A DNA stretch of 32,000 nucleotides from Thiotrichales bacterium 19S3-11 (GTDB taxonomy: Bacteria; Pseudomonadota; Gammaproteobacteria; Francisellales; Francisellaceae). The translations under genes were made by a program, and so were the position numbers. Where the stretch lies: contig JAKJJU010000022.1 in NCBI GenBank assembly GCA_021713295.1, positions 13,401 through 45,400 of the forward strand, read 5' to 3'. How positions within the stretch are numbered: position 1 is the first letter of the stretch; each line of letters opens with the position of its first letter. Below the pieces are notes generated by a model. It was not told the origin of the DNA. It searched no databases and saw nothing but the letters and a program-made list of their open reading frames with translations. Below are positions 12,676 through 32,000 of the stretch, one piece after another.

Positions 12676-15492
12676 ATGTATGAGATTTGGGTAACCTCAC
12701 AAGCTGCGATTATGAAACATGTACTTGATGGTATTGCTGCTTTTTTTAATCGAGATGGTGGCTCATTAATGTTGTATGTGTCATCGGTCTTTGGCTTTTT
12801 AATTCTCATTGGTCGTTACATTATGAAGCCAAGTATTAAAGAGGTAATGATTTGGTTATCAATCTTAATGATCTTGCCTTTTGCTATGATTCAGTACAAA
12901 GATACAGCAAGAATCTATGATACGACTGACCCATTAGATATTTATACCGTTGATCACATACCATTTGGTTTGTTATTTCCGCTATCGATTATCACAAGCA
13001 CAATGCATTCAGTTATCAATACTGCCGAAGATGCACTTCATCAACCAAATGACCCAACCTATACAAAGACAGGGATGGTTTATGCCTCAAAATTATTTGA
13101 TGAAATGAAGTCATTAAAACCATCGGCTGCCTTATCTTCTGCGTGGTCAGAATTTATTTATCAATGTATCGACCCGAATGTGCGTGTTCGTAATCGTTAC
13201 ACCTATGATGATTTATTTAACGCGCCTGATATGATGACATTTTTGAAAGATCACACGCAAGATGGCTTTAATCGTGTGCATATTCCTTGGTTAGGGTCGC
13301 CAAGTTCAGAAACTTCGTGGCCTCGCTGCTTAACGGCATTAAATGCGATCGATGCTAAATATCAAAGTGAATTACCTCAATTTTATACAACGATGGGCGC
13401 ATATGACCCACTAAATAAAGTTAAAACATCAGTAGAAATTCAAAACGATATTAACGGTGTTTATGGATATTTCCTTGGTATTTCATCATCAGCACAAGAA
13501 AACATGATGCAAAACTTAATGATTAATGCCACTAAAAATGGCTTTAAAGATATTGCATCAAAGCATAATCAAACGGCTGCTGCATTTAATTATGCTTATA
13601 CACAAAATGAAATGTCCTCAATGGCTTCATGGGTGACAATTGGCATGATGGCAACGGAATATATACCAATGCTGCAAACGATCGTATTAATGATTCTTTG
13701 CTGTGCCTTTATTCCGATTACTTACCTTGCACTCATTCCAAGTTATACGATGCGCATATTAATTAAATACATTGAAAGTATCATTTGGGTAACAAGTTGG
13801 GGCTTATTTTATGTGTTTATCAACTTCATTATGACAAGTTTTATGAGCTATAGCGTTGATTCTTTTGTGGGTCAATGGCATGGCATTACGATGTCAAATT
13901 TAGATGCAACATCAGGTTTAATGTCTAAATATGCAGCATTAACAGGCTATTTTTTGATGTTTACACCTTATTTAGCAAGGTTAGTTGTATTAGGCGCAGC
14001 GAATACATTTAGTGGTTTAACGACTTCCTTACAATCAAATATTGCAGGTAATGCAGCAACAGGCTCACGAGTAGTCGCAACAGGTGATGTTCAAATAGGC
14101 AATACGAATGTTGCCAATCATAGTGCTAATAATGCTCATTTCAACAAGCAAGATTTTGATCATAACTTACGTTATGGTAATGAATCGATGTCAACGTTAA
14201 ACGGTGGTATGCAATCAGTCGATGCTCAAGGTAATCAATATCACGATAACCGTGTCTCTGGTTTGGCAACGCATCTTAGTCAATCAGAGGCAGTGGCACG
14301 AGGCTTTCAAAGAAGCATTGCCGAACATGAAAATAACGCATTTTCAGCAAATCAAAATGCGCAGCAATCTTGGAATGCAGCCTTAAATACACTATCAGGC
14401 GTTAATGAAAACGAAGCAATCAGAGCAAACTTACAAGCAAGTCATGGCACTAGTAATAGTATGAATACCGATCAAGCTTATGCAACGATGGTTGATTTGG
14501 CGCATCGTTATGGGAAAGACAAGAACGAATCTTTTAGCCATGGTCATACAACTAATGAAGGCATAAAAGGAAATATAGGAACTAGTAAAATTCCATTTTT
14601 AAGGATGTTAGGTGGTATTGACGCTCATGCTGGTATTGATTTTAATCAAAACTGGTCAAGCAGTAGTAGCAGTAGTAGCGGTATGTCAGTTCAAGATCAA
14701 GAAAACTATCGCAAAGCTCAATCCGTACTACAGAGTTCAACAAGATCAGAAATAGCATCAGCAGAAAAGCATTTAGGCGTTGATAAAAATCATTCTATTC
14801 AATCAAGCTTATCTGAAACGAAATCTTATTCTGAAACGGCAGCAAGAGAGCATCGCTTAGCTTTAGATGATCAAAAGGCAGCTAACTATGCGCAAAATGA
14901 AGGCGCATCTGTTCAATATAATGATATTCCTCAATTTGAATCTTGGTTAGCAAATAAAATAGGTGCAGTTGAAGCGAACAATTATCTTAATAGTCCTCAA
15001 TTACAAGGGAGTAGTGAATTTAAAGGCTATGTTAATCAATATGAGTCGATGGCATCAGAGAAATTTAAATCTGAATATGTGGCTAACCAAACAGGCATCA
15101 AAGATCAGTCAATGACTGATATTAATGCACAAGGCAATCAACAATTATCACAGGCTAGGGCATCTATAACAGAGCAAAATGCACAAAATAATAAAGTAGT
15201 TGATCAAAGCCATAAAGCAGATAAAGCTCAATTTACAAATAAAGTTCAACAATCACCTTACGGTAATCCATCATTCAACCCTGATAAGCCAGCAACCTTT
15301 AATCAGCAGAAGGTGATACCACCTAAGATGATTGTATCGGTTGATGAGCATGGCAAACGCTTAACAAAACAAACCGATGCTATTAGAGCAGAAGTAAAAG
15401 ATGAGGTCGGTACAAGTGAAAAATCTAAATTACAGCCAAGCGATAAATCAATATTAGAAGATTATCAAAAAACAAAAATGATGTTTATGTAG
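12676..15492 (+). CDS. traG: TraG, polytopic membrane protein for pilus assembly, mating-pair stabilisation and exclusion specificity
   Basis: 938 aa (as I recall, comparable in size to F TraG). Multi-TM N-terminal half and an N/Q/S-rich C-terminal half. Follows traH. Confidence 0.9.
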   Translation: MYEIWVTSQAAIMKHVLDGIAAFFNRDGGSLMLYVSSVFGFLILIGRYIMKPSIKEVMIWLSILMILPFAMIQYKDTARIYDTTDPLDIYTVDHIPFGLLFPLSIITSTMHSVINTAEDALHQPNDPTYTKTGMVYASKLFDEMKSLKPSAALSSAWSEFIYQCIDPNVRVRNRYTYDDLFNAPDMMTFLKDHTQDGFNRVHIPWLGSPSSETSWPRCLTALNAIDAKYQSELPQFYTTMGAYDPLNKVKTSVEIQNDINGVYGYFLGISSSAQENMMQNLMINATKNGFKDIASKHNQTAAAFNYAYTQNEMSSMASWVTIGMMATEYIPMLQTIVLMILCCAFIPITYLALIPSYTMRILIKYIESIIWVTSWGLFYVFINFIMTSFMSYSVDSFVGQWHGITMSNLDATSGLMSKYAALTGYFLMFTPYLARLVVLGAANTFSGLTTSLQSNIAGNAATGSRVVATGDVQIGNTNVANHSANNAHFNKQDFDHNLRYGNESMSTLNGGMQSVDAQGNQYHDNRVSGLATHLSQSEAVARGFQRSIAEHENNAFSANQNAQQSWNAALNTLSGVNENEAIRANLQASHGTSNSMNTDQAYATMVDLAHRYGKDKNESFSHGHTTNEGIKGNIGTSKIPFLRMLGGIDAHAGIDFNQNWSSSSSSSSGMSVQDQENYRKAQSVLQSSTRSEIASAEKHLGVDKNHSIQSSLSETKSYSETAAREHRLALDDQKAANYAQNEGASVQYNDIPQFESWLANKIGAVEANNYLNSPQLQGSSEFKGYVNQYESMASEKFKSEYVANQTGIKDQSMTDINAQGNQQLSQARASITEQNAQNNKVVDQSHKADKAQFTNKVQQSPYGNPSFNPDKPATFNQQKVIPPKMIVSVDEHGKRLTKQTDAIRAEVKDEVGTSEKSKLQPSDKSILEDYQKTKMMFM

Positions 15493-20061: not shown

Positions 20062-20177
20062 TCTTAAGGGGTATTTTTTTTGAAAATGAGTAGTAAAAAT
20101 TTACCTCCATAAATGAGCAATATGAGTTTTTCTCAATCGTGCTAATGCAATTGTTCATTTAAATTAACTCGTTGAAA

Positions 20178-20199
20178 TATGGCTATTTAAATAGCCATA
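20178..20199. repeat. Perfect 22-bp palindrome TATGGCTATTT/AAATAGCCATA in the traD-traI spacer
   Basis: Read directly. Lies 42 nt upstream of the traI ATG and is not followed by a T-tract. Probable protein-binding site or RNA structure. Confidence 0.6.
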
Positions 20200-20240
20200 G
20201 GCGAACTATGCCCAAAATTCAGTCAAAAAGGAGCATCATT

Positions 20241-23200
20241 ATGTTATCAATTGGCATTGTTACTTCATCAATGGATATACACAAATATTTCATCGATAAA
20301 GATAACTACTACTTAACCGATAAATCAGAGATTAAAGAATCATCACGATTTTATGGCAAAGGTGCTGAAGCTTTAGGCATTAAAGATAAGGTAGTTGAAG
20401 AAAAACTATTTTTAGATTTACTAGAAGGTCGATTGCCTAATGGTCAACAAATAGGTGTTAGCGGTAAAAGTCACAGGCCAGCAACCGATATTACCTTATC
20501 AGCGCCAAAGTCATTTTCAGTGATGGGCTTAATTGCTGGTGATGATCGCCTAAAGGATGTTCAAAGAAAAGCAGAAGAAAAAGTTTATAGTAAAATTGAG
20601 TCACTTTATGCAGAAGCTAGAAAAACGGTTAACGGAGTTACCTCTTATGAAAAGACAGGTAATTTAGTTATTGCCTTGTTTCCTCACTCATCATCAAGAG
20701 AGAAAGATGCTCAAATGCATACGCACGGTGTTATTTTAAATATGACTATGAGAAATGATGGACAGTGGCGCGCATTATCTTCAAGACAAAAGACTGATTT
20801 AATCAATATTGAGCATGGTTTTAGGGAATTAATTTATCAAAATCAGCATTACTTAGGCATGATTTATAATAGTGAGTTAGCCAAAGGTGCAATTGATTGT
20901 GGTTATGAGCTTGAAGTTTTAGACAAATATGGCAATTTCAAAATCAAAGGTTTATCGGATGAGTATTTAAAAAGCCAATCAAAAAGACGTGAACAAATTT
21001 TAGATATGGCGAAAGAAAAAGGTACAATGACACCTAAAGCTTTAAGTGCTTTCTCTAAAGCATCACGTAAAATTAAAGAGGCTGTTACACCTGATAAATT
21101 AAAAGAAGCATGGCAAGAAGATGCCAAAGCGCAAGGTGTTGATTTAAAAAAAGTGCTTGATCAGTCAATTCAGCGAGTTAATGATAAAGGCAATCAGCAT
21201 ACACAATCTGTATCAAGTTCATTACATAAAATCAGTCAAAATGCTAAAGAGGCAATTAATGATGCCATTACGCATTTATCGCAGTTTTCAGTTAAGTTGC
21301 AGCATGGCGATATTGTAAGACAAGCCTTTATTTTTGGTGGTGGTGTGATCAACCATGAAGAATTAGAACATATTATTGAAACCAAACAAAAACAACGAGA
21401 ATTAATTGGATTATCTGACCAATACTACACAACGAAAGCGTTAATTACAGAAGAAAAAGCATTTAAAACGGCAATGAAGCAAACAAAAGCTGTTTCATGG
21501 TCAAAAGATATTGCTCAATCTGGATTGATTGCTGAAAGTTTAAAAAGTAATGATCGTATACAGATTATCAATACCAAAGGCTTAAAAAATGAAACGAATC
21601 TAATCAATGATGCGGTAAGAATAGTAGAAGCAAACGGTTTAAATGCTTATGTTTTGCATCCGAATCAATCACGTCTAAATCTCTTAAAAGAAGATGTCAC
21701 AAGAGATAAAAAGAATATTTGGCAGTATTTTAAAAACTATTTTAAAGGTGATCTATTACAAACAACAGGTAAGTTTGAACATGAATATAAGGCTAGGTTA
21801 AATAGTCCGTTTAGGTCAAAGAAACAAGATATGATCTTTGTTACTGACAGTCAAAAACTGTCTTATGAAGGATTAAGTAAGCTTAATGATTTAGCCGAAA
21901 AAGGTAATGCTAAGCTGATTCTGTTAAATAACACGGAATCAACACAAGGTTTTAGAAGTGGTAACCCAATTAAAGTATTACGTTCATGTGGTGTTGCTGA
22001 ATATAACTCAAAGACAATTAAAAAAGAGGTCTTAGTTGAGATTACACAAGCCGTACAAACCAATAAATTATTAGCTGAACATTACACTTCAATTGATAGA
22101 GATAAACGCAATTTAATACCGATTGTTGCATCAACGAACAAAGCACAGACAGATTTAACGCATCTAATTCGCAATCATTTAAAAGATCAAGGCGAATTAT
22201 CCATTCAGGAATATAACTATCAAACTTTATCAACGAAAGGCTTAAGTGACACTGAAAAGAAATATTTAAAATGCTATTCAGTCGGTGATCTAATTACGTT
22301 AAAGCCATTCACTAAAGATCAACAAGCGTATCTTATCAGTGACATTGATAAGGAAAATAAAACCTTATCGCTTATTTCAATTAATGCTAAAGATAATAAA
22401 ACTTATCAGTTATCACACGATGATCTATTAAAAACAGAGTTTCAAATTAACAAAAAACAAACACTTTCAGTGTCAGTCAATGATCGTTTAATGGCGACTC
22501 GTAACCTTTATATTAAAGCTAACCATTTAAGCAATGAACGAGTTAAAATTGATAAAAATAGCGTTATTGAAGTTGAATCAATTGCTAAAGATGGCTTAAG
22601 AATTAAGCATAATGAGCAAAGTTTATGGCTTTCAAATGAAGCATTAAAAGCATCAATGCTTGATCATGGTTATGTCATTAAACCGCATCAATTAGACAAA
22701 GAATTTAATCAGGTGTTTACTTCATTATCTGGCTATCAAGTTAATCAAAATAGTATTGGTGAATTAAAAGAATATGCAAAAAATATTCATCTATTTACGG
22801 ATAACAAAGAGAAAGCATCAAAATCTTTAGATTCAGAAAATATTGTTTGGGTTGCAACTGATATAAAGGCTCTACAAAAAAACACCAGTTACAACCCAAC
22901 AGTAAGGAATGACTTGTCAATCGAAAAGGACTTACAAGTAGTAGCTAATGCCCTATCACATGGGTGTGTTAAATCAACAGAGAAAGGGCAATTAACCACT
23001 CCTAAAGATCATACAAAAACATTGCTTAATACACAAGATGATCACAATAATATTAATGCCGATGCACGCTCTAATCAAAGTGTCACCAAAGGAATAGATG
23101 TCGTGCATACGGCAGTTTCCTATGGTATCGCAAAGTTAAGTGAAAAAGAAGCTTCTTTTTCAATGGAAGATTTACTTAAAGAATCAATGACCTATGCATT

Positions 23201-26200
23201 AGGTTATACGACAGGTGATGAAATCGAAAAAGTCATTGATGAAAAGCGCGCTAACGGTGAGCTATTAATTAATGATCGTCACGTCACAACGAAAGCAATT
23301 TACGAACTTGAGAAATCAATTATTGATAATATAAGTGATGGTCACAATCAGGTTCAATCAGTTGTTAATGAGTTACCTAGTTTACGTGAAGGTCTCACTC
23401 AAGGTCAAAAAGATGCAATATCGCTGGCATTAACAACAAAAGATCGATTCATTGGCATTCAAGGTTTAGCTGGTACTGGTAAAACAACCATGATGAAAGA
23501 ATTAAGAGAAAAAGCTGAATCAAATGGCTATGAAATTGTTGGTATTGCACCAACACATAAGGCGGTTCAAATGTTAGATGGGTCAATGAATGAAAAATCA
23601 TCAGGTGAACGCTTTAGAAATGCTGGTATTCCAGTCATGACCGCACATGCCTTTATCAACCAAGAATTAGACAAATACAATGATAAAACGATCTTTATTA
23701 TTGATGAGTCTTCAATGATTGGTAACCGCTTATATCATGGCATCCAACAGAAGACAAAAAGCTTAAATGCTCGAACAATTTTTGCTGGTGATATCAAGCA
23801 ACAAGCTGCCATTGATCAAGGAAAACCGCAAGAGTTGAGCCTAAATAATGGCTTAAAATATGCCTCAATGAATGAAATTATACGTCAACGTAATAGTCCA
23901 GTTTTAAAGAAAAGTGCTGAGTTAGCTGCCAGTGGTAAGGCATCTGAATCATTAACTAATTTAGAAAAAATAAACCCATTTGATCATATCAAACGTAAAA
24001 ACTATTATGCTAGTTCAACTGAATCTTTCGTTGAAATTGCGCCTGATAAAGACACAAAAGGCAATGTAATTTTAGGTGATGATGACAAACCTAGGTATAA
24101 CAACCTATATCAAGCGATTGCTAATGATTACTTAACAAGAGTTACAGAGCAAAGAGGTCATACCGTTGTTATTGCTAAAACCCATAAATCACGTGCTGTC
24201 ATTGATGAAAAAATAAGAGATGGCTTAATCAAAGAAAGTGTGATACATAGCTCACAACCAGTAACAAGGCTTGCATCAAAAGATTTAGAAAAGGTTGATT
24301 TATTAATTGCTAAAAACTACGAGGTCAATGATATTATTAAGTTTGATCGTAGCTTTTCAATCGCTAAGAAGGGCGATTTAATGAAAGTAACTGATATTAA
24401 TAGTGCAGATAATAAGCTTACTATTTTCAATGAAAAAGATGGCAATACCTATACGATCAACCCTGCTAAATTAGCAACCAATGCTCAAATATCTCTTTAT
24501 CAGCAAGTTGATGCTAATTTAGGTATTGGTGATAGAGTTCGATTAAGAGTAAGTGATATTCCACGTGGTTTTACAGGTGGTCTTGAATACAAAGTTGAAG
24601 CAATTAAAGGCGACTATGCAACACTTAAAAATGACACAGATACCTTAAAAATCAACCTAAAGAATAGAGAAGATCAGATATGGGATTATGCCTATACCAA
24701 TACAACGTTTAGTGTTCAAGGTGATACCAAAAAATATGCAATTGGTCTTGAATTATTTGAAAATGATAGAGGAAACTACATTCAAATCACACGCGCTAGC
24801 GAACATGCAATTATCTATACTAGTAATAAGGCAAAGTTATTAACACAACTAGATGACGAGAAGGTTAAGTATGAAGCCAGCAAACGATCGGCGTATGAAC
24901 TCTTTGGTCAAAATAAAGAAAAAAATGCATCCAGCAAACAATCGGTATATGAATTCGTTAATCAAAAGAATGAAGACAAAAACCTTAAAATCCATGATCA
25001 AAAGGCTCAAGAAAGCCAGCCAGTTCATGAAAAGAAAACAAGTGAAATAACGCTAACTAAACCGAAAATCAAACCAGTTTTAGCAGATGATTTAAAGCCT
25101 CTTTTGAAAGAAAGATCAGAAGAATTAGCCATACATTTATTAGGTGAGCCTAATCAACAACTATCAAATCGTAGTCAATTAAGGTTCGGTCACAAAGGCT
25201 CATTATCAGTAACTATTTCAGGTCAGCATCAAGGAAAGTGGCGCAATTTTGAGACAGGCGAGCAAGGCAATGCTCTTGATTTAATTAAGGCAGAAATGAG
25301 CTATTCTAATTTTAAAGATGTCTTAAATTATGCTAAAAACTTCTTAAATTATGAGCCAACAAGTGAGCCAGTTAAGCAAGAATCAGTTGAGAAAGTAGCA
25401 AAAATTGATCTTGAAGAAACACAACGAAAAGAGAAAATGAAACAATATGCTACTAAATTATTTAACAATTCTAAGCCAATTAAAGGCACGCTAGCTGAAA
25501 AATATTTAAGCCAATCAAGAGGATTAAATAACTATCATAATGCCGATATTCGATTTTTACCTGCTATTTCTGGCTATGCTAAAAACAAAAAAACAGGTGA
25601 ATTTGACATTAAAGTCTATACACCAGCAGTCCTTGCATTTGCCAAAGATAAGGATAATCAAATTAACCATGTACAAGTGATTAGGCTTGATAGAGACGGT
25701 AATAAAAACAAAGAAGTTAAGATTGCTAAGCAAACCTATGGCTCAATGAATAGCTTTGCTGTTGAGTTAAATAACAAGGCAAATAAAGAAGTAACCTACC
25801 TTACAGAAGGCGTTGAAACGGGTTTATCAATCCTAAATGTTAATAAAAAAGCGGATGTTTTAGCTGTCTTAGGTAAGTCAAATTTTGCTAATATTGACCT
25901 AGAAAAGATAGCTGATAAGGTTATTTTGGCACTTGATAATGACGGTATTAGCAAAACTTTTTCTGATAAAACAATTGTAGATGCTGTCACACGATTACAA
26001 GAAAATGGTAAAGATGTACAAATCATTATGCCTGAAAAACCTAAGTCTGACTTTAACGATGTTTTAAAAAATGAAGGCTATCAAGCACTTTCAAAACAGA
26101 TTAATCAATCCTTATCAGCGAAAGATTTAAATCAAGTATCACTAAAATTAGCCAGTGATCATTTAATTAAATCTGAAAATATTACCTTAAATCAAGCTTT

Positions 26201-26435
26201 ATCTTTGATTGATAAAGACATTAAATATAAAGATTTTGATGCCCATAATAAAGTAAAAATCAATGATATTGATCACAAGTTACTTAAAAATATTGACCAA
26301 AATTATGCTATTAAAACTGATAAAAATCTTAATAAACAGATTGATACTGTCCTAAATGAGCAAGTTAAATATGATCAAATTGAAAATATTTTACCTGAAA
26401 AGACGCTTAAAATAGATAAGGAAATGGAACTTTAA
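20241..26435 (+). CDS. traI: TraI, MOBF relaxase-helicase with an additional C-terminal primase-like/Toprim module
   Basis: The start is moved to the ATG at 20241, 7 nt after AAGGAG (20228-20233). The N-terminus is co-linear with remembered F TraI: Y16, DKDNYY, LLEGRLPNG, HRPATDITLSAPKS, GNLVIALFPHSSSRE..AQMHTHGV. Helicase Walker A GLAGTGKTT (23463-23489) and FIIDESSM. C-terminal ~330 aa: RFGHKGSLSV..GKWRNFETGEQGNALDLI (cysteine-less primase finger-like), then Toprim YLTEGVETG and ALDNDG. Confidence 0.93.
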   Translation: MLSIGIVTSSMDIHKYFIDKDNYYLTDKSEIKESSRFYGKGAEALGIKDKVVEEKLFLDLLEGRLPNGQQIGVSGKSHRPATDITLSAPKSFSVMGLIAGDDRLKDVQRKAEEKVYSKIESLYAEARKTVNGVTSYEKTGNLVIALFPHSSSREKDAQMHTHGVILNMTMRNDGQWRALSSRQKTDLINIEHGFRELIYQNQHYLGMIYNSELAKGAIDCGYELEVLDKYGNFKIKGLSDEYLKSQSKRREQILDMAKEKGTMTPKALSAFSKASRKIKEAVTPDKLKEAWQEDAKAQGVDLKKVLDQSIQRVNDKGNQHTQSVSSSLHKISQNAKEAINDAITHLSQFSVKLQHGDIVRQAFIFGGGVINHEELEHIIETKQKQRELIGLSDQYYTTKALITEEKAFKTAMKQTKAVSWSKDIAQSGLIAESLKSNDRIQIINTKGLKNETNLINDAVRIVEANGLNAYVLHPNQSRLNLLKEDVTRDKKNIWQYFKNYFKGDLLQTTGKFEHEYKARLNSPFRSKKQDMIFVTDSQKLSYEGLSKLNDLAEKGNAKLILLNNTESTQGFRSGNPIKVLRSCGVAEYNSKTIKKEVLVEITQAVQTNKLLAEHYTSIDRDKRNLIPIVASTNKAQTDLTHLIRNHLKDQGELSIQEYNYQTLSTKGLSDTEKKYLKCYSVGDLITLKPFTKDQQAYLISDIDKENKTLSLISINAKDNKTYQLSHDDLLKTEFQINKKQTLSVSVNDRLMATRNLYIKANHLSNERVKIDKNSVIEVESIAKDGLRIKHNEQSLWLSNEALKASMLDHGYVIKPHQLDKEFNQVFTSLSGYQVNQNSIGELKEYAKNIHLFTDNKEKASKSLDSENIVWVATDIKALQKNTSYNPTVRNDLSIEKDLQVVANALSHGCVKSTEKGQLTTPKDHTKTLLNTQDDHNNINADARSNQSVTKGIDVVHTAVSYGIAKLSEKEASFSMEDLLKESMTYALGYTTGDEIEKVIDEKRANGELLINDRHVTTKAIYELEKSIIDNISDGHNQVQSVVNELPSLREGLTQGQKDAISLALTTKDRFIGIQGLAGTGKTTMMKELREKAESNGYEIVGIAPTHKAVQMLDGSMNEKSSGERFRNAGIPVMTAHAFINQELDKYNDKTIFIIDESSMIGNRLYHGIQQKTKSLNARTIFAGDIKQQAAIDQGKPQELSLNNGLKYASMNEIIRQRNSPVLKKSAELAASGKASESLTNLEKINPFDHIKRKNYYASSTESFVEIAPDKDTKGNVILGDDDKPRYNNLYQAIANDYLTRVTEQRGHTVVIAKTHKSRAVIDEKIRDGLIKESVIHSSQPVTRLASKDLEKVDLLIAKNYEVNDIIKFDRSFSIAKKGDLMKVTDINSADNKLTIFNEKDGNTYTINPAKLATNAQISLYQQVDANLGIGDRVRLRVSDIPRGFTGGLEYKVEAIKGDYATLKNDTDTLKINLKNREDQIWDYAYTNTTFSVQGDTKKYAIGLELFENDRGNYIQITRASEHAIIYTSNKAKLLTQLDDEKVKYEASKRSAYELFGQNKEKNASSKQSVYEFVNQKNEDKNLKIHDQKAQESQPVHEKKTSEITLTKPKIKPVLADDLKPLLKERSEELAIHLLGEPNQQLSNRSQLRFGHKGSLSVTISGQHQGKWRNFETGEQGNALDLIKAEMSYSNFKDVLNYAKNFLNYEPTSEPVKQESVEKVAKIDLEETQRKEKMKQYATKLFNNSKPIKGTLAEKYLSQSRGLNNYHNADIRFLPAISGYAKNKKTGEFDIKVYTPAVLAFAKDKDNQINHVQVIRLDRDGNKNKEVKIAKQTYGSMNSFAVELNNKANKEVTYLTEGVETGLSILNVNKKADVLAVLGKSNFANIDLEKIADKVILALDNDGISKTFSDKTIVDAVTRLQENGKDVQIIMPEKPKSDFNDVLKNEGYQALSKQINQSLSAKDLNQVSLKLASDHLIKSENITLNQALSLIDKDIKYKDFDAHNKVKINDIDHKLLKNIDQNYAIKTDKNLNKQIDTVLNEQVKYDQIENILPEKTLKIDKEMEL

Positions 26436-26758
26436 GCACTCTGCATACCTTCAATATAAGCATCAGAATTTGACTCAATCATATGAATTAATGTCTTAGC
26501 ATCAAAAAAATTACCTGTTGTTTTACTACGTTCAAAAACGCAATTTAGAATTTCTTTAGCAAGGTAATTGTTCTCTAGCACCATCTTTACAATTGGGTCT
26601 TCTACTTTTTCATCTGCTTTTTTAGTGCTAGCTTCATGAACTTTTAAGCCTAATTCAATCATATCAATGGCAAAATTTAGTTGTCCCTTCTCATCAGAAT
26701 TACAACTTTCTTGAATTTTTTGCCATATATTTGTGCCAATATCTAATGTTATTTCCAT
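26432..26758 (-). CDS. traM: TraM-like relaxosome accessory / signalling protein
   Basis: 108 aa. ITLDIGTNIWQKI....AIDMIELGLKVHEAS parallels remembered F TraM VNLYISNDAYEKI....ASMLLELGLRVHEAQ. It lies next to the predicted oriT. Confidence 0.6.
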   Translation of the reverse strand: MEITLDIGTNIWQKIQESCNSDEKGQLNFAIDMIELGLKVHEASTKKADEKVEDPIVKMVLENNYLAKEILNCVFERSKTTGNFFDAKTLIHMIESNSDAYIEGMQSA

Positions 26759-27225
26759 CTATTTTTGTCCTTTTCAATTGGTATTGTTTTCATATTTCTA
26801 TGATTTATTGAGCAATGAAGTGTATCATAATTGTAAGTTTGAAATGCTCCATATGTATTTTTAAGTGTCTCATCAACCGATGATTTTACTACATTGAATA
26901 ATTGCTTATTGTCATTTCTAGCGTATATTAATTCTTGTGTATAGTTAGATACAATTTGCATATCACAAGCCATATTTGGAATACTAACATGAATCTGTTC
27001 TAGCATTTTTTTCATCTTTAAGATTTCAGAATTAAGATCAATTTTTTTATCGTTTGATTGTGATTCTTGATCATTCATTCTTTCGCGAATTAATAATTTC
27101 ATTGCACTTGTTAATAATGGTTTTGAGTTAACATTAAATAAATTATTTTCAATTGCTAACTTTTCTAAAAATGTTTTTTCCTCTCTAGTTAATCGAATCG
27201 AAGTAGGTGGTATTTTGTTATCCAA
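26749..27225 (-). CDS. Ribbon-helix-helix DNA-binding protein; candidate TraY-like relaxosome accessory factor / autoregulator
   Basis: TTG start at 27225, 8 nt after AAGGA. The N-terminus TSIRLTREEKTFLEKLAIEN has the beta-strand/helix pattern of RHH proteins (compare F TraY LTMRLDDETNQLLIAAKN). It is the first gene next to the palindrome array and overlaps the traM-like gene by 10 nt. Confidence 0.55.
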   Translation of the reverse strand: MDNKIPPTSIRLTREEKTFLEKLAIENNLFNVNSKPLLTSAMKLLIRERMNDQESQSNDKKIDLNSEILKMKKMLEQIHVSIPNMACDMQIVSNYTQELIYARNDNKQLFNVVKSSVDETLKNTYGAFQTYNYDTLHCSINHRNMKTIPIEKDKNRWK

Positions 27226-27260
27226 AGTTCATATCCTTTTATCAAAATTGAAAAATCAAA

Positions 27261-27516
27261 GTATCACAATGTGATGCACTATTATATTTTATCGTATCAC
27301 AATGTGATGCGCAATACATTTCACTTATTTTTAAAAATATAAATCACATATAAAATATATAGTTAAATGTGTATCACAATGTAATAATTTGTATTGCTAT
27401 GTGATGCGCTTTGAGTTAGTTCTGTCATACTCATGTAATACTTTATGTATCACAATGTAATCTATTGAGATAATTAACTAATTTATATACGTTTTATTAA
27501 TATTACTCTGTGATAC
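27261..27516. promoter_or_regulatory. Operator array: repeated 13-bp palindrome ATCACA-A-TGTGAT within GTATCACAATGTGATGC
   Basis: Two perfect 17-mers at 27261-27277 and 27294-27310 (33-bp spacing). Variants at 27371-27385, 27391-27407 and 27447-27461. Half-sites at 27423-27430, 27434-27441 and 27509-27516. Confidence 0.8.
27286..27314 (-). promoter_or_regulatory. Sigma70-type promoter for the RHH/traM operon
   Basis: On the minus strand: -35 TTGCGC (27314-27309), 17-nt spacer, -10 TAAAAT (27291-27286). The spacer is filled by palindrome copy 2, and copy 1 lies just downstream of the predicted start. This is an autorepression-like layout. Confidence 0.55.
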
Positions 27517-27601
27517 AAGATTATCTGTATATTATTTAAACATTTTAAAGTATTTAAAATAAGCTAAAATCTATGATATATATAGTCTTTTTTGAATAAA
27601 C

Positions 27602-27726
27602 AAAGGCAAAATCAATTGCGTGATGTGTGGGTGCTTTCTCTCGGTATCAGGTAATGTTAAATTCTAATGCGTATCCTCTGGAATCTTTAAAGGCTTCGTT
27701 TGCCAACTGAACACAAAAGGCAAAAT
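27602..27726 (+). other. oriT: oriT core with predicted nic site (T27628|G27629) on the + strand
   Basis: 27616-27637 TTGCGTGATGTGTGGGTGCTTT compared with remembered F TTTGCGTGGGGTGT|GGTGCTTT and R100 TTTGCGTAGTGTGT|GGTGCTTT. Flanked by an 11-bp direct repeat AAAGGCAAAAT (27602-27612 and 27716-27726) and an inverted TTTGCC (27699-27704). Confidence 0.7.
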
Positions 27727-27742
27727 TTCTACGCCGATTGAG

Positions 27743-28054
27743 TGAAAATTAATAATACAAATATCTCAACTTTTGAAAACTTAAAATTCAAAAAAATGTA
27801 TCATCTAAATTTTGAAAATAACAAAAATAGATAACTTAAAAATGATCAATTTGAACAAACTGAATTTTGATTTTTTGCTTATTCTTAATTTTTAAAATTA
27901 ACCCATTTTTGAAAATTACAGGGACGATATTTTAACAATTTATAACTATCAAAATCGCTAAAATTAAAATCATAGCTATTGAAGAATTTGAAAATCTTAA
28001 TGAAAACTTAAATGCAAATGACAACCACCTAAAATGCAACCTCGATGTGAAAAT
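27743..28054 (+). repeat. Seven same-orientation TGAAAAY heptamers (mostly TTTGAAAAT) in the first ~430 nt after the predicted nic
   Basis: Copies at 27743, 27774, 27813, 27910, 27989, 28001 and 28048. My rough base-composition estimate gives well under one copy expected by chance. Confidence 0.6.
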
Positions 28055-28144
28055 CCCCCTGCTTTGGTTGGTGCTTTTAGTCCAGCTAAAATATTATTTT
28101 ATATACTTCTTTAAATATTATTATATTTATTTTTTTAAATAGTT

Positions 28145-28369
28145 TTAAAATTCTTTCTCACTGACCTTTGAGAAAACTGATTTTTTCTCTTGCTCAAACT
28201 CAAACAAATAATGATCTAACTCTTTCTTAGTTTGAAATCTTTTAAGAACAGTATAAGCAACACCTAAACCTTGGACGTCTTCCATAAAAATATATTCACC
28301 ATCTTCTCTATCAATGACGTAATACTCAAACTTTTTTTCATCTCTGTTAATAATACTTAGTTTAACCAT
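28145..28369 (-). CDS. Hypothetical 74-aa acidic protein, second gene of the J-domain operon
   Basis: ATG at 28369, 9 nt after AGGA and 11 nt after the J-domain gene stop. No recognisable domain. Confidence 0.5.
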   Translation of the reverse strand: MVKLSIINRDEKKFEYYVIDREDGEYIFMEDVQGLGVAYTVLKRFQTKKELDHYLFEFEQEKKSVFSKVSEKEF

Positions 28370-28380
28370 TTTTATAATCC

Positions 28381-28884
28381 TTAAATAGCTTCTAAATAAT
28401 TTTTATTTTCATTCATTTTTGTACTATTAAATTTCTCTCTTATTTCCTCCATACTCCACTCTTGATTATTATTTCTATGTTTTTTGCCTTTGGCTTGTTC
28501 AGGACGATAAAACCACATTTGCTTTTTTCTTGCCCATTTAAAACCAGCCTGTTTAATTATTTCTTTATGTGCTTTAGTCTCACCTGACAGCCACACCCAT
28601 AACCCACATATTTCTATAACAATACCAGTTAAATTTTTAACGGCATTTAACGCTGTGTTTAAAATTTCTGGGTATTCTGTCATTTGAATATTTTCAAAAA
28701 CTTCGATTTCTTCAATATCTTTTAAAATTTCATAAGCACAATTAATTACTTTCATCATTTCAATACCTGCTGGGTTTCTATCAGGATGAAATTCTTTTAC
28801 TTTTAATCGATAAGATTTTTTAATATCACTAGCTGTAACCTTTCCTTGTAAACCTAAAATTAATGCAGCTTCAAACTTGTTCAT
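28381..28884 (-). CDS. J-domain (DnaJ-like, HPD motif) protein with a W-rich basic C-terminal domain
   Basis: The start is moved to the ATG at 28884, 6 nt after AGAGG. J-domain helices II/III flank the HPD motif (ASDIKKSYRLKVKEFHPDRNP...MMKVINCAYEILKD). No Gly/Phe or zinc-finger regions. The C-terminus reads GLWVWLSGETKAHKEIIKQAGFKWARKKQMWFY. Confidence 0.8.
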   Translation of the reverse strand: MNKFEAALILGLQGKVTASDIKKSYRLKVKEFHPDRNPAGIEMMKVINCAYEILKDIEEIEVFENIQMTEYPEILNTALNAVKNLTGIVIEICGLWVWLSGETKAHKEIIKQAGFKWARKKQMWFYRPEQAKGKKHRNNNQEWSMEEIREKFNSTKMNENKNYLEAI

Positions 28885-28925
28885 TTTCAACCTCTATGTT
28901 ATTTTATTTTGTGTTGCCACACTTC

Positions 28926-29015
28926 CTTTTTGAACAAGCCATATGCGAATCTTTGAAAGGGTGGCTTGCCACTTGCGTAGCCCTTGCAAAGATGAGTGTG
29001 CTTGTTATAAAAAAG
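28926..29015. promoter_or_regulatory. Imperfect ~90-nt hairpin carrying -35 TTGCAA / -10 TATAAA; candidate Frpo-like single-strand promoter (and a rightward dsDNA promoter)
   Basis: Hand-paired stems: 28926-31/29010-15, 28933-39/29000-06, 28949-55/28987-93 and 28957-61/28981-85 (25 bp). There is an internal loop in the spacer and a 3-nt bulge inside the -10. -35 at 28984-28989, 16-nt spacer, -10 at 29006-29011. Confidence 0.5.
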
Positions 29016-29086: not shown

Positions 29087-29104
29087 TTTGTACACGTGTA
29101 CAAA
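29087..29104. promoter_or_regulatory. Perfect 18-bp palindrome TTTGTACAC/GTGTACAAA upstream of the ParB-like gene (parS-like or operator)
   Basis: Read directly. It shares the CACGTG core and T/A-rich arms with the chromosomal parS consensus TGTTTCACGTGAAACA. It lies 17 nt upstream of a candidate -35 TTGATT (29121-29126), with -10 TAAATT (29144-29149). Confidence 0.55.
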
Positions 29105-29192: not shown

Positions 29193-29948
29193 ATGGATAT
29201 TATCGAAATCAATCCCCAACTTTGTAAACGTTGGCAATTTGCTGACCGATCTAACTTTGAATTTGGCGATACTCTCAAACTCGGTACTGACATCAAAAAC
29301 AACGGTCAAGTTGAGCCTGTTATTGTCAGAAAATCAAATGATTCTAAATTTAAGTATGAGGTAATTGCTGGTAGCCGTCGTCATCGAGCTTGTCTTGAAA
29401 CTGACATACTAATGAAAGCTATCGTTAAAAATATCTCTGATCAAGAAGCTTTCTTTATGCAGCTTAGGGAAAATGAGAAGCAACCTATTTCAGACTATTC
29501 ACGTGGAATGAATTTCAAAAAATTAATTGATAGCGGAAAATCAACAGTTGAAGAGTTGTCAAAAATCAATCAATGCTCAAAAGAGAAAATATATCACCTA
29601 CTCTCATTTGCAAGCGTACCAACACAAATATGGGATGCTGTTGCTAACATGAGCAAAGTCTCTTGTCGTTCTGCTAGTACAATCAATGCCCTTGCTAAAA
29701 AAGGTGATCAATACGTCAGTGCTTTAATTGATATTGCAGAAGAAATCAGAAAAGGCGCTGGGAGCAGAAAAATTGAAAACTTAGTTAATACCATAGTCAA
29801 CGGTGAGCAAAAAATTGATGACCAAAGACAAATTGTATCTAAAGAGGGTAATGTGATTGGTAAGTGGGTTAAAAATACAATTGTTTTTGACAAATCTTTT
29901 ACAGTAAACCAAAAAGATATTGAAGATTTATTAACCGAGTATCTTTAA
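29193..29948 (+). CDS. ParB/Srx-fold N-terminal domain protein (orphan ParB-like; no ParA in the window)
   Basis: AAGGAAG RBS. VEPVIVRK....YEVIAGSRRHRAC is the ParB box II / arginine-patch pattern (GxRRxRA). A probable HTH follows (STVEELSKINQCSKEKIYHLL). Confidence 0.75.
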   Translation: MDIIEINPQLCKRWQFADRSNFEFGDTLKLGTDIKNNGQVEPVIVRKSNDSKFKYEVIAGSRRHRACLETDILMKAIVKNISDQEAFFMQLRENEKQPISDYSRGMNFKKLIDSGKSTVEELSKINQCSKEKIYHLLSFASVPTQIWDAVANMSKVSCRSASTINALAKKGDQYVSALIDIAEEIRKGAGSRKIENLVNTIVNGEQKIDDQRQIVSKEGNVIGKWVKNTIVFDKSFTVNQKDIEDLLTEYL

Positions 29949-30106
29949 AAACAAGCACAGTAATTCCACCCGTGGCATCATTTCTCTCTCTATTCTTTTA
30001 AGTACTGTGCCTGTACTTGCATACTAAGTTAATATCTATATGATATCAATCGTGTTATTCATATATTTTCATGATATATTTACTGTATATTTTTGGATTT
30101 AAGCTC

Positions 30107-30322
30107 ATGATTAGACTTGAAACTAACAAACGCTACTATTTAATTAACTTGACCAAAGATTTATTTGATCAGTGGTGTGTTGTTTGTACATGGGGTTCTA
30201 AGCTATCAAGATTAGGAAATCAACAAACTCATCTGGTAGACAATGAAATATCAGGTCAAAGCCTAATTGCAAAAATCATTAAAACTCGCAAGAGTCATGG
30301 CTATGAAATTATCGAAGATTAG
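30107..30322 (+). CDS. Small WGR-domain-like protein
   Basis: KRYYLINLTKDLFDQWCVVCTWGSKLSRLGNQQTH....AKIIKTRKSHGYEI follows the WGR-domain pattern (rYY.l.l..dLFg.w.v.r.WGRiG..G.......K.k.GY). The start is uncertain: 30071 in the track, or the ATG at 30107. Confidence 0.5.
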   Translation: MIRLETNKRYYLINLTKDLFDQWCVVCTWGSKLSRLGNQQTHLVDNEISGQSLIAKIIKTRKSHGYEIIED

Positions 30323-30383: not shown

Positions 30384-31337
30384 ATGATTGTTAGAAAAAA
30401 TAACACAGACGTTAACAAGCCAAAGTACGACCAATACTTTAAATTCAATTTAGAAAAAAAAGAAATTGCCGAGGAAATTATCAGGTCTGTTTTACCTAAA
30501 GAATTAATTGAGTTTGCTGATTTCTCAAAAATGAAGCTTGAACAAAGTGAACATATTGATGAAGAGCTAAGAAAATTAATTACTGACGTGCTTTGGAGTA
30601 TACCAATTAAAGGCGAAAAGGCTTATATATACATCCTTGCAGAACACGAAAGTAGCCTTAAAAATCATCACTTACTACCTTTTAGGTTTCATAAGTATAT
30701 GATTCGTATTATGGAAAAGCACATTGCTAAAGGTAATAAAAAGTTACCTATTGTCATACCCGTGTTGTTTTATCATGGTGCAAAACAAGGATACCCTCAC
30801 AGCCTATCAATCTTTAATTGCTTTGAAGATAAAGAGCTTGCAAAAAAATATGCATTCCAAGATATCACATTAGTTGACCTTACCGTCCTAGATGAAAAAG
30901 AAATTGCTCTACAAGGATTTCGATTTTTCTTTCAATTGGTGTTAAAATATTCAAGAGACAAAGAATTAGCCAAACGATTAGTAGATATACTAGAAAAATA
31001 CCCTAATCTGGCAAATTATTTTGATGGTAAAGACTTTAAAGATGCATTTGTTCAATTATTAATGAGTTTAGATTTAGACTCTAAACATACTGCTAGAGAA
31101 ACTTTAAAGAAATTAGATGATTTAACTGGAGCTGATATTATGACGCTACGTGAACAATGGGAAGCTAAGGCTACTAAAAAAGGTGTTAAACAAGGGCGTA
31201 TTCAAGAAAAACAGGAAACGGCTAGGAATATGTTGGCTAAAGGTTTAGATACTAAATTGGTTGCCGATTGTACTGGTCTTGAACTTGAGACTGTTCTTGA
31301 GCTTAAGAAAGATGTTGATAATCAGAAGAAAAGATAA
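30384..31337 (+). CDS. Rpn-family (YhgA-like) PD-(D/E)XK recombination-promoting nuclease / 'putative transposase'
   Basis: FKFNLEKKEIAEEIIRSVLP...ITDVLWSIPIKGEKAYIYILAEHESS...LLPFRFHKYM...LPIVIPVLFYHG is the characteristic Rpn N-terminal nuclease core. It has the repeated helical C-terminal tail. Preceded by an extended -10, TGtTATAAT, at 30343-30351. Confidence 0.8.
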   Translation: MIVRKNNTDVNKPKYDQYFKFNLEKKEIAEEIIRSVLPKELIEFADFSKMKLEQSEHIDEELRKLITDVLWSIPIKGEKAYIYILAEHESSLKNHHLLPFRFHKYMIRIMEKHIAKGNKKLPIVIPVLFYHGAKQGYPHSLSIFNCFEDKELAKKYAFQDITLVDLTVLDEKEIALQGFRFFFQLVLKYSRDKELAKRLVDILEKYPNLANYFDGKDFKDAFVQLLMSLDLDSKHTARETLKKLDDLTGADIMTLREQWEAKATKKGVKQGRIQEKQETARNMLAKGLDTKLVADCTGLELETVLELKKDVDNQKKR

Positions 31338-31381: not shown

Positions 31382-32000
31382 TTAGCTGACATGTTTAATA
31401 TTCCAATAATTTGATAAATATTCTTCAATTTTACGGTAATTATCATAAGATAATTCAATCTTACCTTCTGGGCTTCCCAAATCCCTAACCCAATCCATAA
31501 CGAAATTATCAAGGCGCTTCTTTCTATTTTTTGCTGCTAAACGATTACTTAAAGTGCTGCCATAGTCTTTTCTATCACATCTAATTAAACGTAATAGTAA
31601 TCTAAATGATCGATAGCTGGCCTCCACATTTGTCGCCATTCCGCCAAAAATTATGCGATGTTCATTAAATAAGTGACGACTTAAAAAAACATGAGCAGTG
31701 CCAAAGCATTCATCTACATAACTAGCTATATCTGAACCATAATAAATTCCTGCTCTGCGTGTTAAATTAATTTCTTTACTCTGAACTATTTTAGATTCAT
31801 CAAACTTAATGACTTTACTGTCTGCTTCTACCAGTTGCTTGCGAAATTTTTCAATCCCTTCACATGTATAGTACATATCAAAACCATAATCTTTTGTTTT
31901 TTGAATACTATTCTGAAAAATCTTGCCTATGTTCCTATCATTACATGTCAAAATTTGTTTTGATTTTTCTGCTTCTTCTTCTTTTTTAATCCGTTGTTTT
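31382..32000 (-). CDS. Hypothetical protein, N-terminus cut by the window end (possibly DUF2786-type leading-region protein)
   Basis: The minus-strand frame stays open upstream of the TTG at 31951 to the window edge (…KQRIKKEEEAEKSKQIL-TCND…). The family assignment comes only from a vague recollection of similar plasmid proteins. Confidence 0.5.
   Translation of the reverse strand, partial: KQRIKKEEEAEKSKQILTCNDRNIGKIFQNSIQKTKDYGFDMYYTCEGIEKFRKQLVEADSKVIKFDESKIVQSKEINLTRRAGIYYGSDIASYVDECFGTAHVFLSRHLFNEHRIIFGGMATNVEASYRSFRLLLRLIRCDRKDYGSTLSNRLAAKNRKKRLDNFVMDWVRDLGSPEGKIELSYDNYRKIEEYLSNYWNIKHVS

Follow-up and report, generated by a model that had tools for sequence, protein, structure and literature searches.

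The stretch of DNA examined here (32,000 nt of contig JAKJJU010000022.1 from Thiotrichales bacterium 19S3-11, positions 13,401 to 45,400 of the forward strand, hereafter the window) is part of a plasmid-like contig and contains an F-type transfer operon (48-26435, + strand), which ends with the genes for TraD (NCBIfam TIGR02759, 658 bits) and the relaxase TraI, and, on the far side of an F-like origin of transfer (oriT), a gene for a 167-aa J-domain protein, which is the subject of this analysis. The J gene and a 74-aa open reading frame (ORF) that follows it after an 11-nt spacer (28370-28380) point toward oriT, and a long imperfect hairpin with promoter-like elements lies between the J gene and a divergent gene for a ParB_N-domain protein (Table 1). 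Plausible ribosome-binding sites could be read in front of both the J gene and the 74-aa ORF, and the two would be co-transcribed. What is already known is a common and annotated protein family, for which no functional study was found; what is new is the unusually clear leading-region setting and, in the window, a candidate single-strand promoter.

An alternative TTG start at 28890 would give a 169-aa ORF (28381-28890, - strand); the ATG start at 28884 was preferred because the homologues start with MNKF. The original prediction, made by a model from the letters and their ORFs, had seen a canonical J domain with an intact HPD motif in the N-terminal 65 aa, and this was borne out by profile, alignment and structure. 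Pfam DnaJ (PF00226) matched residues 9-62 with 47.7 bits, above its cut-off of 27.8 (E = 1.7e-12), H33 and P34 occur in every one of 39 homologues, D35, R36 and N37 being at least 90% conserved, and a family profile run against PDB sequences matched solved J domains at E = 1e-13. The AlphaFold2 (AF2) model of the protein has a mean predicted local distance difference test score (pLDDT) of 86 and a predicted template-modelling score (pTM) of 0.72; its J-domain helices at residues 18-31 and 40-54, with pLDDT above 93, form the helical hairpin fold, and the modelled domain superposes on PDB J domains with a root-mean-square deviation of 1.4-2.2 Å over 51-57 residues. The identities of canonical DnaJ, CbpA and DjlA were rejected, as the full-length models score far below their cut-offs: the class A/B DnaJ model TIGR02349 gave 39 bits against 377, with the alignment restricted to the J domain, and the CbpA model NF007618 gave 16.2 bits against 403. 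Judged from its sequence, the product has two domains and can be assigned to class C (type III) of the J-domain proteins, within a large family carried by plasmids.

The J domain is joined to a basic module that had been described in the original prediction as Trp/Lys-rich. The segment in question, LWVWLSGETKAHKEIIKQAGFKWARKKQMWFYRP, was located at residues 95-128 and turned out to be the most conserved part of the family: W96, W98, G101, T103, K111, K121 and W124 are invariant in the 39 homologues, and E91, G94, I148 and R149 are also among the most highly conserved positions, which concentrate in the C-terminal half. The core of the module has an isoelectric point (pI) of 9.7, and the C-terminal half is predicted to be arranged as strand-strand-helix-strand-strand in the AF2 model. 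No Pfam match was obtained for this domain, nor any PDB sequence match with the family profiles. When the domain alone was used as query, 1,723 clusters at 50% identity were retrieved; a Pfam-passing J domain is present in 89 of the best 150 of these matches, the rest being in part truncated gene calls and in part genuine stand-alone proteins of 80-100 aa. The domain is also found in tandem duplication (P0101), fused to a Peptidase_M78/CapP-like (IrrE/CapP-type) protease (P0063) and fused to what, by eye only, was judged a nuclease-like protein (P0052). Moreover, 52 of the best 150 members matched the last positions (~540-574 of 575) of the PADLOC model of ZorC, with a best E of 7e-6, although these matches are weak, typically ~15-17 bits over ~35 residues, and the window protein itself scored E = 1.3e-3. 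The C-terminal globular domain of ZorC is required for its binding of double-stranded DNA (PMC11946911). We regard the relation to ZorC as a weak lead, not as established homology. Its basic charge, its recurrence in combination with effector domains and the lead to ZorC together mark the module as a putative targeting domain, which probably binds DNA or nucleoprotein.

As to the position of the gene, the + strand at 27605-27637 reads GGCAAAATCAATTGCGTGATGTGTGGGTGCTTT, and the nic region within it resembles the F/R1 oriT substrate of TraI studies, GCAAAAACTTGTTTTTGCGTGGGGTGT^GGTGCTTTTGG (PMC5422253, PMC3074121), with which it has the blocks TTGCGTG, GTGT and GGTGCTTT in common and in the same order. 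The order of the elements on the + strand is likewise that of F, with antisense accessory genes followed by repeats, nic and the next genes, again antisense. By analogy with F, the + strand would be the T-strand, the nick would lie near 27628-27630, and the DNA of higher coordinates would enter the recipient first. The J and 74-aa genes are found 0.5-1.3 kb beyond the nic motif on its 3′ side, if the transfer direction is that of F. Since the ORF list holds no ORF of at least 40 aa from 27226 to 28145 (a 920-bp non-coding stretch, 27226-28144, separates the 158-aa gene from the 74-aa ORF), the two genes constitute the first coding unit of the leading region; and since they lie on the - strand, opposite to the nic motif on the + strand, the T-strand would be their template. 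In both respects the original prediction, which had placed the pair directly after nic and oriented toward oriT, agrees with the F-like motif found here.

The nic block is conserved in the sister plasmid of 19S11-10 (L009, JAKJJR010000021.1), unlike the 22-nt repeat part of oriT, which has diverged. From their sequence and place, the repeats are probably binding sites for relaxosome accessory proteins, either the TraM-like protein or the 158-aa protein. A second, partial copy of the nic core, GTTGGTGCTTT, occurs on the + strand at 28067-28077, 440 nt past the main motif and shortly downstream of the 74-aa gene; the sister plasmid has retained it as well. The AT-rich spacer from nic to the 74-aa gene contains repeated TTGAAAA(C/T)-type motifs, and an insertion or deletion of ~140 bp at 27790-27925 distinguishes the window from the sister plasmid.

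Table 1. Features of the window at and around oriT and the J gene (positions of the window, 1 being its first letter)
Feature	Coordinates	Strand	Basis or location
TraI, MOBF relaxase-helicase (2087-aa ORF)	20172..26435	+	TIGR02760, 1239.8 bits; precomputed Pfam domains
TraM-like gene	26432..26758	-	Tra_M E=2.2e-5, below Pfam cut-off; NCBIfam TraM weak
158-aa gene	26749..27225	-	ORF list
22-nt repeat, five copies (GTATCACAATGTGATGC...), palindromic core ATCACAATGTGAT	27261..27468	.	between 158-aa gene and nic motif
F-like nic region TTGCGTGATGTGTGGGTGCTTT, divided as TTGCGTGATGTGT / GGGTGCTTT	27616..27637	+	likeness to F/R1 oriT oligonucleotides
74-aa acidic ORF	28145..28369	-	ORF list; 11 nt downstream of J gene
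J-domain protein gene, 167 aa	28381..28884	-	ORF list; Pfam DnaJ; 39-sequence alignment; AF2 model
Conserved basic Trp-rich C-terminal module, residues ~85-130	28495..28632	-	alignment, pI, secondary structure
J domain, residues 1-65, HPD at 33-35	28690..28884	-	Pfam, alignment, profile, structure
90-nt imperfect hairpin on T-strand, between J gene and parB-like gene	28926..29015	+	folding
Promoter-like TTGCAA-N16-TATAAA, hairpin 3′ arm	28984..29011	+	sequence and fold
ParB_N-domain gene, 251 aa, divergent from J gene	29193..29948	+	Pfam/NCBIfam

The hairpin upstream of the J gene, which had also been proposed from the letters, is real: the surrounding 311 nt fold with z = -3.7 against shuffled sequences, and the hairpin ranks among the top six in stability of the non-overlapping 100-nt segments of the + strand. 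On its 3′ arm, TTGCAA (28984-28989) occupies the -35 position and is paired, and TATAAA (29006-29011) occupies the -10 position and is partly unpaired. Since this arm acts as the non-template strand, transcription from the hairpin would run into the J gene, and Frpo single-strand promoters work by the same hairpin logic (PMC11541004). The same ParB/J/small-ORF layout was identified in four metagenomic contigs (L015-L018), in which the J protein is 98% and the ParB protein 91% identical to that of the window. The flanks and outer stem of their hairpin are 95-100% identical to those of the window, whereas the inner ~55 nt are entirely different; yet the T-strand still folds into a hairpin of -18 to -20 kcal/mol, and TTGACA-N16-TATAAA is present with the same TATAAA at the same position. 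That structure and promoter geometry survived a replacement of the sequence argues that the hairpin is functional, and its arms of 35-40 nt are long for a simple operator. The hairpin thus has the structure and the geometry to present a sigma-70-type promoter once the DNA is single-stranded, and we consider it a candidate promoter of predicted activity. A convincing duplex promoter near the J gene was not found; a leftward sigma-70-like site is located at 29228-29199. Between the hairpin and parB there is, in addition, a perfect 14-bp palindrome, TGTACACGTGTACA (29089-29102), which in L017 and L018 reads TTGACACGTGTCAA; the symmetric changes retain the palindrome, which suggests a site for a dimeric protein, perhaps the ParB-like protein.

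A J domain with an intact HPD motif docks on DnaK (Hsp70) and triggers its ATPase. The J domain of the window protein would do the same with the DnaK of the host, while the C-terminal module, by binding DNA or a DNA-bound protein, would set where DnaK works. Being encoded on the first-entering side of the T-strand, behind a hairpin promoter that would be active when single-stranded, the protein may be made early in the transconjugant, and the recipient DnaK would then remodel a nucleoprotein complex on the incoming plasmid; the relaxase, the replication initiator and single-stranded DNA-binding protein (SSB)-coated DNA are candidate clients. We give roughly an even chance to this reading, in which the J protein is a specialised DnaK co-chaperone in early plasmid establishment. 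There is a precedent in the phage J-domain protein Rki, which acts via DnaK early in infection (PMC3486835). A stronger version can be formulated, in which the whole family is a dedicated conjugation-establishment effector that tethers the recipient Hsp70 to incoming plasmid DNA or nucleoprotein, with a promoter that, in the window, switches with strandedness: the T-strand hairpin would fire toward the J gene, and the -35 and -10 elements in duplex DNA would fire the opposite way, toward the ParB-like gene. This stronger version seems to us rather unlikely.

The precedent of Rki also offers a different explanation. Rki of phage RB43 combines a J domain with an unrelated region and, in an HPD- and DnaK-dependent manner, keeps sigma-32 stable early in infection (PMC3486835). 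Built on the same general plan and encoded in an early-entering region, the window protein might engage DnaK in the same way, stabilising sigma-32 and raising the levels of chaperones and proteases with no plasmid client at all. Yet the basic C-terminal domain, which also occurs joined to a protease and by itself, is a better fit to a targeting module, and the best PHROG match of the J protein is a family of unknown function, the comparison with Rki being one of general build only. A reprogramming of the heat-shock response is very unlikely in our estimate.

The distribution of the family bears on a role in establishment. By tblastn, homologues of the J protein were detected in 2,712 PLSDB records (2,530 of them over at least 80% of the protein), of which 2,219 are typed conjugative, with hosts including Escherichia, Klebsiella, Acinetobacter, Enterococcus, Salmonella and Piscirickettsia; near-identical DNA to the window was not found in PLSDB. 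Matches covering at least 80% of the J protein occur in about 5 of 50,697 phage records. A metagenome-scale search with the C-domain profile gave 2,436 clusters at 90% identity, nearly all with PF00226. The family includes plasmids typed to IncX1/IncX3, IncX4, rep_cluster_734, rep_cluster_1027 and rep_cluster_715, the C-terminal domain being conserved throughout, and the window protein is homologous to them in both domains and has the invariant WxW...G.T...K...K..W core. The homologues are annotated as 'J domain-containing protein', with some sources labelling members 'CbpA', and the presence of J-domain homologues on plasmids has been remarked earlier with 'function unknown' (PMC4207749). The suggestion that the locus may be an undescribed module has therefore to be divided: no functional study of a characterised plasmid J-domain protein was found in our literature searches, but homologues from ~2,500 PLSDB plasmids have already been annotated.

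A survey of homologues for a place beside oriT had further been suggested. Six proteobacterial backbones, the window included, have the J gene directed toward the presumed oriT. In IncX1 pMAS2027 and IncX4 pMCR1-NY it heads a co-oriented array that ends at taxA/ddp1 and the relaxase gene, and the same direction is seen in A. baumannii pZ198-1 (MOBF, MPF_F), in a Glaesserella F-type plasmid and in a Piscirickettsia plasmid that has exactly the synteny of the window, including the TraM-like and 158-aa genes. We also surveyed the context of 80 species-level loci, using only type IV coupling protein (T4CP), MOBF, MOBP and VirB4 seeds, which makes the result a lower bound: in at least 30 of the 80, a gene for a coupling protein, a relaxase or VirB4 lies no more than 10 kb away. 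A window-like arrangement was seen at four loci, and in three the J gene is followed by a co-directional relaxase operon. The association of the family with transfer regions is thus strong, with nearness to relaxase, coupling-protein or oriT sequences in many unrelated conjugative backbones; the orientation is mixed. A T-strand-templated place in the leading region is found in the window and several backbones and is no rule, and a fixed orientation of the family toward oriT was rejected.

In an E. faecalis plasmid, the J gene adjoins ssb, a nuclease gene and an AcrIIA9-family gene. This neighbourhood counts in favour of a role in early establishment and would also suit an effector against host defence, by which DnaK is used to unfold or disable a defence or SOS component of the recipient, or which serves as a decoy for defences that monitor DnaJ-DnaK. 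Anti-defence genes templated by the T-strand are enriched in leading regions (PMC11541004), the bNACHT25 defence protein depends on the co-chaperone activity of DnaJ (PMC12169576), and the C-terminal domain resembles, as described above, the end of the model of a Zorya component. However, no match to known anti-defence families was obtained, nor can a defence target be pointed to, the only DnaJ family in the supplementary tables of the leading-region survey has 5 members, and the sequence of the family is very uniform for an arms-race gene. We consider an anti-defence role highly doubtful.

The 74-aa protein had been regarded as the partner of the J protein. It is indeed acidic (pI 5.2, net charge -3.4) and encoded directly downstream, but it is not conserved with the J gene. 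It has two close homologues only, with no tblastn match in plasmids and none in Pfam (E up to 10), NCBIfam, PHROGs or PADLOC; its AF2 model (pLDDT 74) consists of four strands and a helix, and a fold search of this model against the PDB returned noise only. Profile and structure searches of the two proteins, which the original prediction had proposed as a check, thus confirmed the J domain but gave no fold match for the C-terminal domain or the 74-aa protein. In the sister plasmid of 19S11-10, the 74-aa gene and the oriT/nic region are ~90% identical to those of the window, and the homology ends at the ribosome-binding site of the 74-aa gene: other genes have taken the place of J, but the 74-aa gene has remained beside oriT.

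The J genes of the family are directly followed by different genes at different loci. The commonest of these, in 27-29 of 99 loci and after a gap of 1-105 nt, encodes a conserved protein of ~170-210 aa with the motif HSIGCSxTK..IAxDIxRRLLP (for example L001 1829-2377, L013 6065-6607 and L064 10527-11123); this ~180-aa partner is found in IncX1, IncX4, Glaesserella and many Bdellovibrionales and not in the window. It has no Pfam, PHROG or PDB match, and its hidden Markov model (HMM) is not matched by the 74-aa protein. The 74-aa protein was accordingly rejected as a conserved partner, and its ORF is, as far as its sequence tells, a lineage-specific, oriT-proximal orphan. At least seven copies of the J family, most of them followed by the ~180-aa partner, were seen on a single 3.04-Mb contig of a Bdellovibrionales metagenome-assembled genome (CBDCLX010000002.1; L053, L061, L072, L073, L078, L082 and L092), which points to a multi-copy element in predatory bacteria.

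These findings also bear on a resemblance to CbpA and CbpM. CbpM binds the DNA-binding J protein CbpA and switches it off, and the 74-aa protein could be thought to do the same to the J domain of its neighbour, the arrangement being equal: the second half of the J protein is basic, and a small acidic ORF follows after 11 nt. The pair recurs in the four metagenomic contigs, but these are nearly the same as the window locus, their J proteins being 98% identical. The absence of any Pfam match up to E = 10, a predicted fold that is not helical, the two close homologues, the persistence of the 74-aa gene without J in 19S11-10, the other downstream genes of most family members and a CbpA model score of 16 bits against a cut-off of 403 all contradict such a pair, which we take as largely excluded and extremely improbable.

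Several observations weigh against a role of the J protein in early establishment. The role proposed here is read from sequence. In the sister plasmid, which keeps the same oriT, the place of the J gene (L009 1-8000) is taken by an unrelated 130-aa ORF and a gene cluster with two APH phosphotransferases, several acetyltransferases and a methyltransferase, so the J gene is dispensable there. In duplex DNA, the promoter of the hairpin faces parB, and a reading as an ordinary promoter or operator is possible. A Frpo-like hairpin directly upstream of J was found at 8 of 87 loci, the control strand giving 4, and four of the 8 are near-identical relatives of the window; such a hairpin was thus rejected as a family-wide feature; long hairpins were seen at some other loci, there without a control. 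The orientation is mixed, with four loci divergent from a TrwA-like/T4CP/MOBF operon and four downstream of the relaxase gene, and in about half of the loci with a detectable MOBF relaxase the J gene has other orientations or positions. Phages, phage-plasmids, non-mobilizable plasmids and chromosomes carry homologues as well. As for the C-terminal domain, Foldseek searches against the PDB and BFVD gave J-domain matches or noise only, and the C-domain profile retrieved no ZorC chain from PDB sequences, so that the weak ZorC similarity was not reproduced.

Part of this would be expected if the J protein served vegetative replication or maintenance in donors and established transconjugants, DnaK activating the replication initiator and the closeness to oriT being incidental. 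DnaK and DnaJ activate P1 RepA, F RepE and R6K pi, and in IncX4 it is the J gene that comes first behind the replication initiator and origin region. Homologues on non-mobilizable plasmids, phage-plasmids and phages, which do not conjugate, agree with such a role, as does the mixed orientation relative to relaxase genes, and the leftward sigma-70-like site at 29228-29199 could drive ordinary duplex expression. On the other hand, the family spans different replicon groups with its C-terminal domain conserved, which speaks against a client peculiar to one replicon; linkage to transfer genes is strong and recurrent; and in the window the gene lies at oriT, with no replication gene identified among the gene products examined. 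A purely vegetative function is for these reasons unlikely, in our judgement, and the early-establishment co-chaperone is the reading we prefer.

The genes around the J locus add to the picture of an F-like transfer region. The TraM-like and 158-aa genes converge on traI, their transcription running away from oriT. TraI is called as 2064 aa in the source assembly (2087-aa ORF in the window), and downstream of its TrwC relaxase and helicase domains its C-terminus has a primase-like region with DUF7146 and Toprim_3; a relaxase fused to a primase in this way could prime the complementary strand once in the recipient. On the leading side, the ParB_N gene has no adjacent ParA gene and, because its sense is that of the T-strand, would have to await synthesis of the second strand before it could be expressed; its leading-region position recalls the ParB-like YfjB/HerB of F (PMC13370423). 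It is followed by genes for a small WGR-domain protein (30071-30322, +), a YhgA/Transposase_31 protein (30384-31337, +) and a DUF7168 protein (31382-31951, -), the last being a 189-aa ORF in the window, where the gene calls of the contig give a product of 340 aa. An Rfam scan across the entire window gave nothing.

J-domain proteins decide where Hsp70 works. If the co-chaperone reading is true, conjugative plasmids commandeer the main chaperone of the recipient in the first minutes of establishment, a step of which no description was found in the literature searched. In the stronger version, with the whole family as a dedicated effector, this would be the first chaperone-hijacking function described for conjugation and would extend to IncX1 and IncX4, including the mcr-1 plasmid pMCR1-NY. 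The family is carried by thousands of sequenced plasmids, among them IncX1, IncX4 (with the mcr-1 plasmid), Acinetobacter MOBF and enterococcal plasmids, and its presence on IncX1/IncX4 and other common plasmids makes the hypothesis testable in E. coli. HerB is a published case of host reprogramming by a leading-region protein (PMC13370423). If the J gene serves only replication or maintenance, the result is an ordinary one. The comparative work has in either case yielded a portable, putatively DNA-associated targeting domain, a ~180-aa partner and a candidate hairpin promoter that survives a swap of its sequence.

The window locus may finally be set beside the systems that it resembles. Closest are the IncX members of the family, WP_001025387 (IncX1 pMAS2027) and WP_001025395 (IncX4 pMCR1-NY), which are 43-49% identical to the window protein over 92-94% of its length, have the same two-domain build and the same invariant residues, and are likewise encoded in co-oriented arrays that run toward relaxase accessory and relaxase genes. 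They differ in position and company: the window J gene is the one closest to oriT, whereas the IncX gene is the promoter-proximal gene of an array of 3-4 kb and is followed by the conserved ~180-aa protein, which the window does not have. Rki (ORF057w of the T4-like phage RB43) is, like the window protein, a small protein of a mobile element with an N-terminal J domain and a non-DnaJ region; it is phage-encoded and known to stabilise sigma-32, whereas the window family is plasmid-encoded and nothing comparable is known of it. With CbpA-CbpM of E. coli, the locus shares a J domain with a basic part and a small acidic ORF directly downstream, but the window protein is devoid of the C-terminal domains of CbpA, and the 74-aa protein has no CbpM/MerR-type match and is not conserved with J. 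The likeness to the C-terminal globular domain of ZorC of type I Zorya is confined to the weak matches of the window family, over ~35 residues, to the end of the model. With the Frpo and zygotic leading-region genes of F-like plasmids (ssb, psiB, yfjB/herB), the window has in common the place just beyond nic, the T-strand as template and, as read from its sequence alone, a long imperfect hairpin, one arm of which bears a -35 element and a partly unpaired -10 element. Similarity in sequence to known Frpo elements was not seen, though no comparison aimed at it was made. What sets the window apart is the product, a co-chaperone, where the leading-region products of F-like plasmids are an SSB, an SOS inhibitor and a ParB-like protein.

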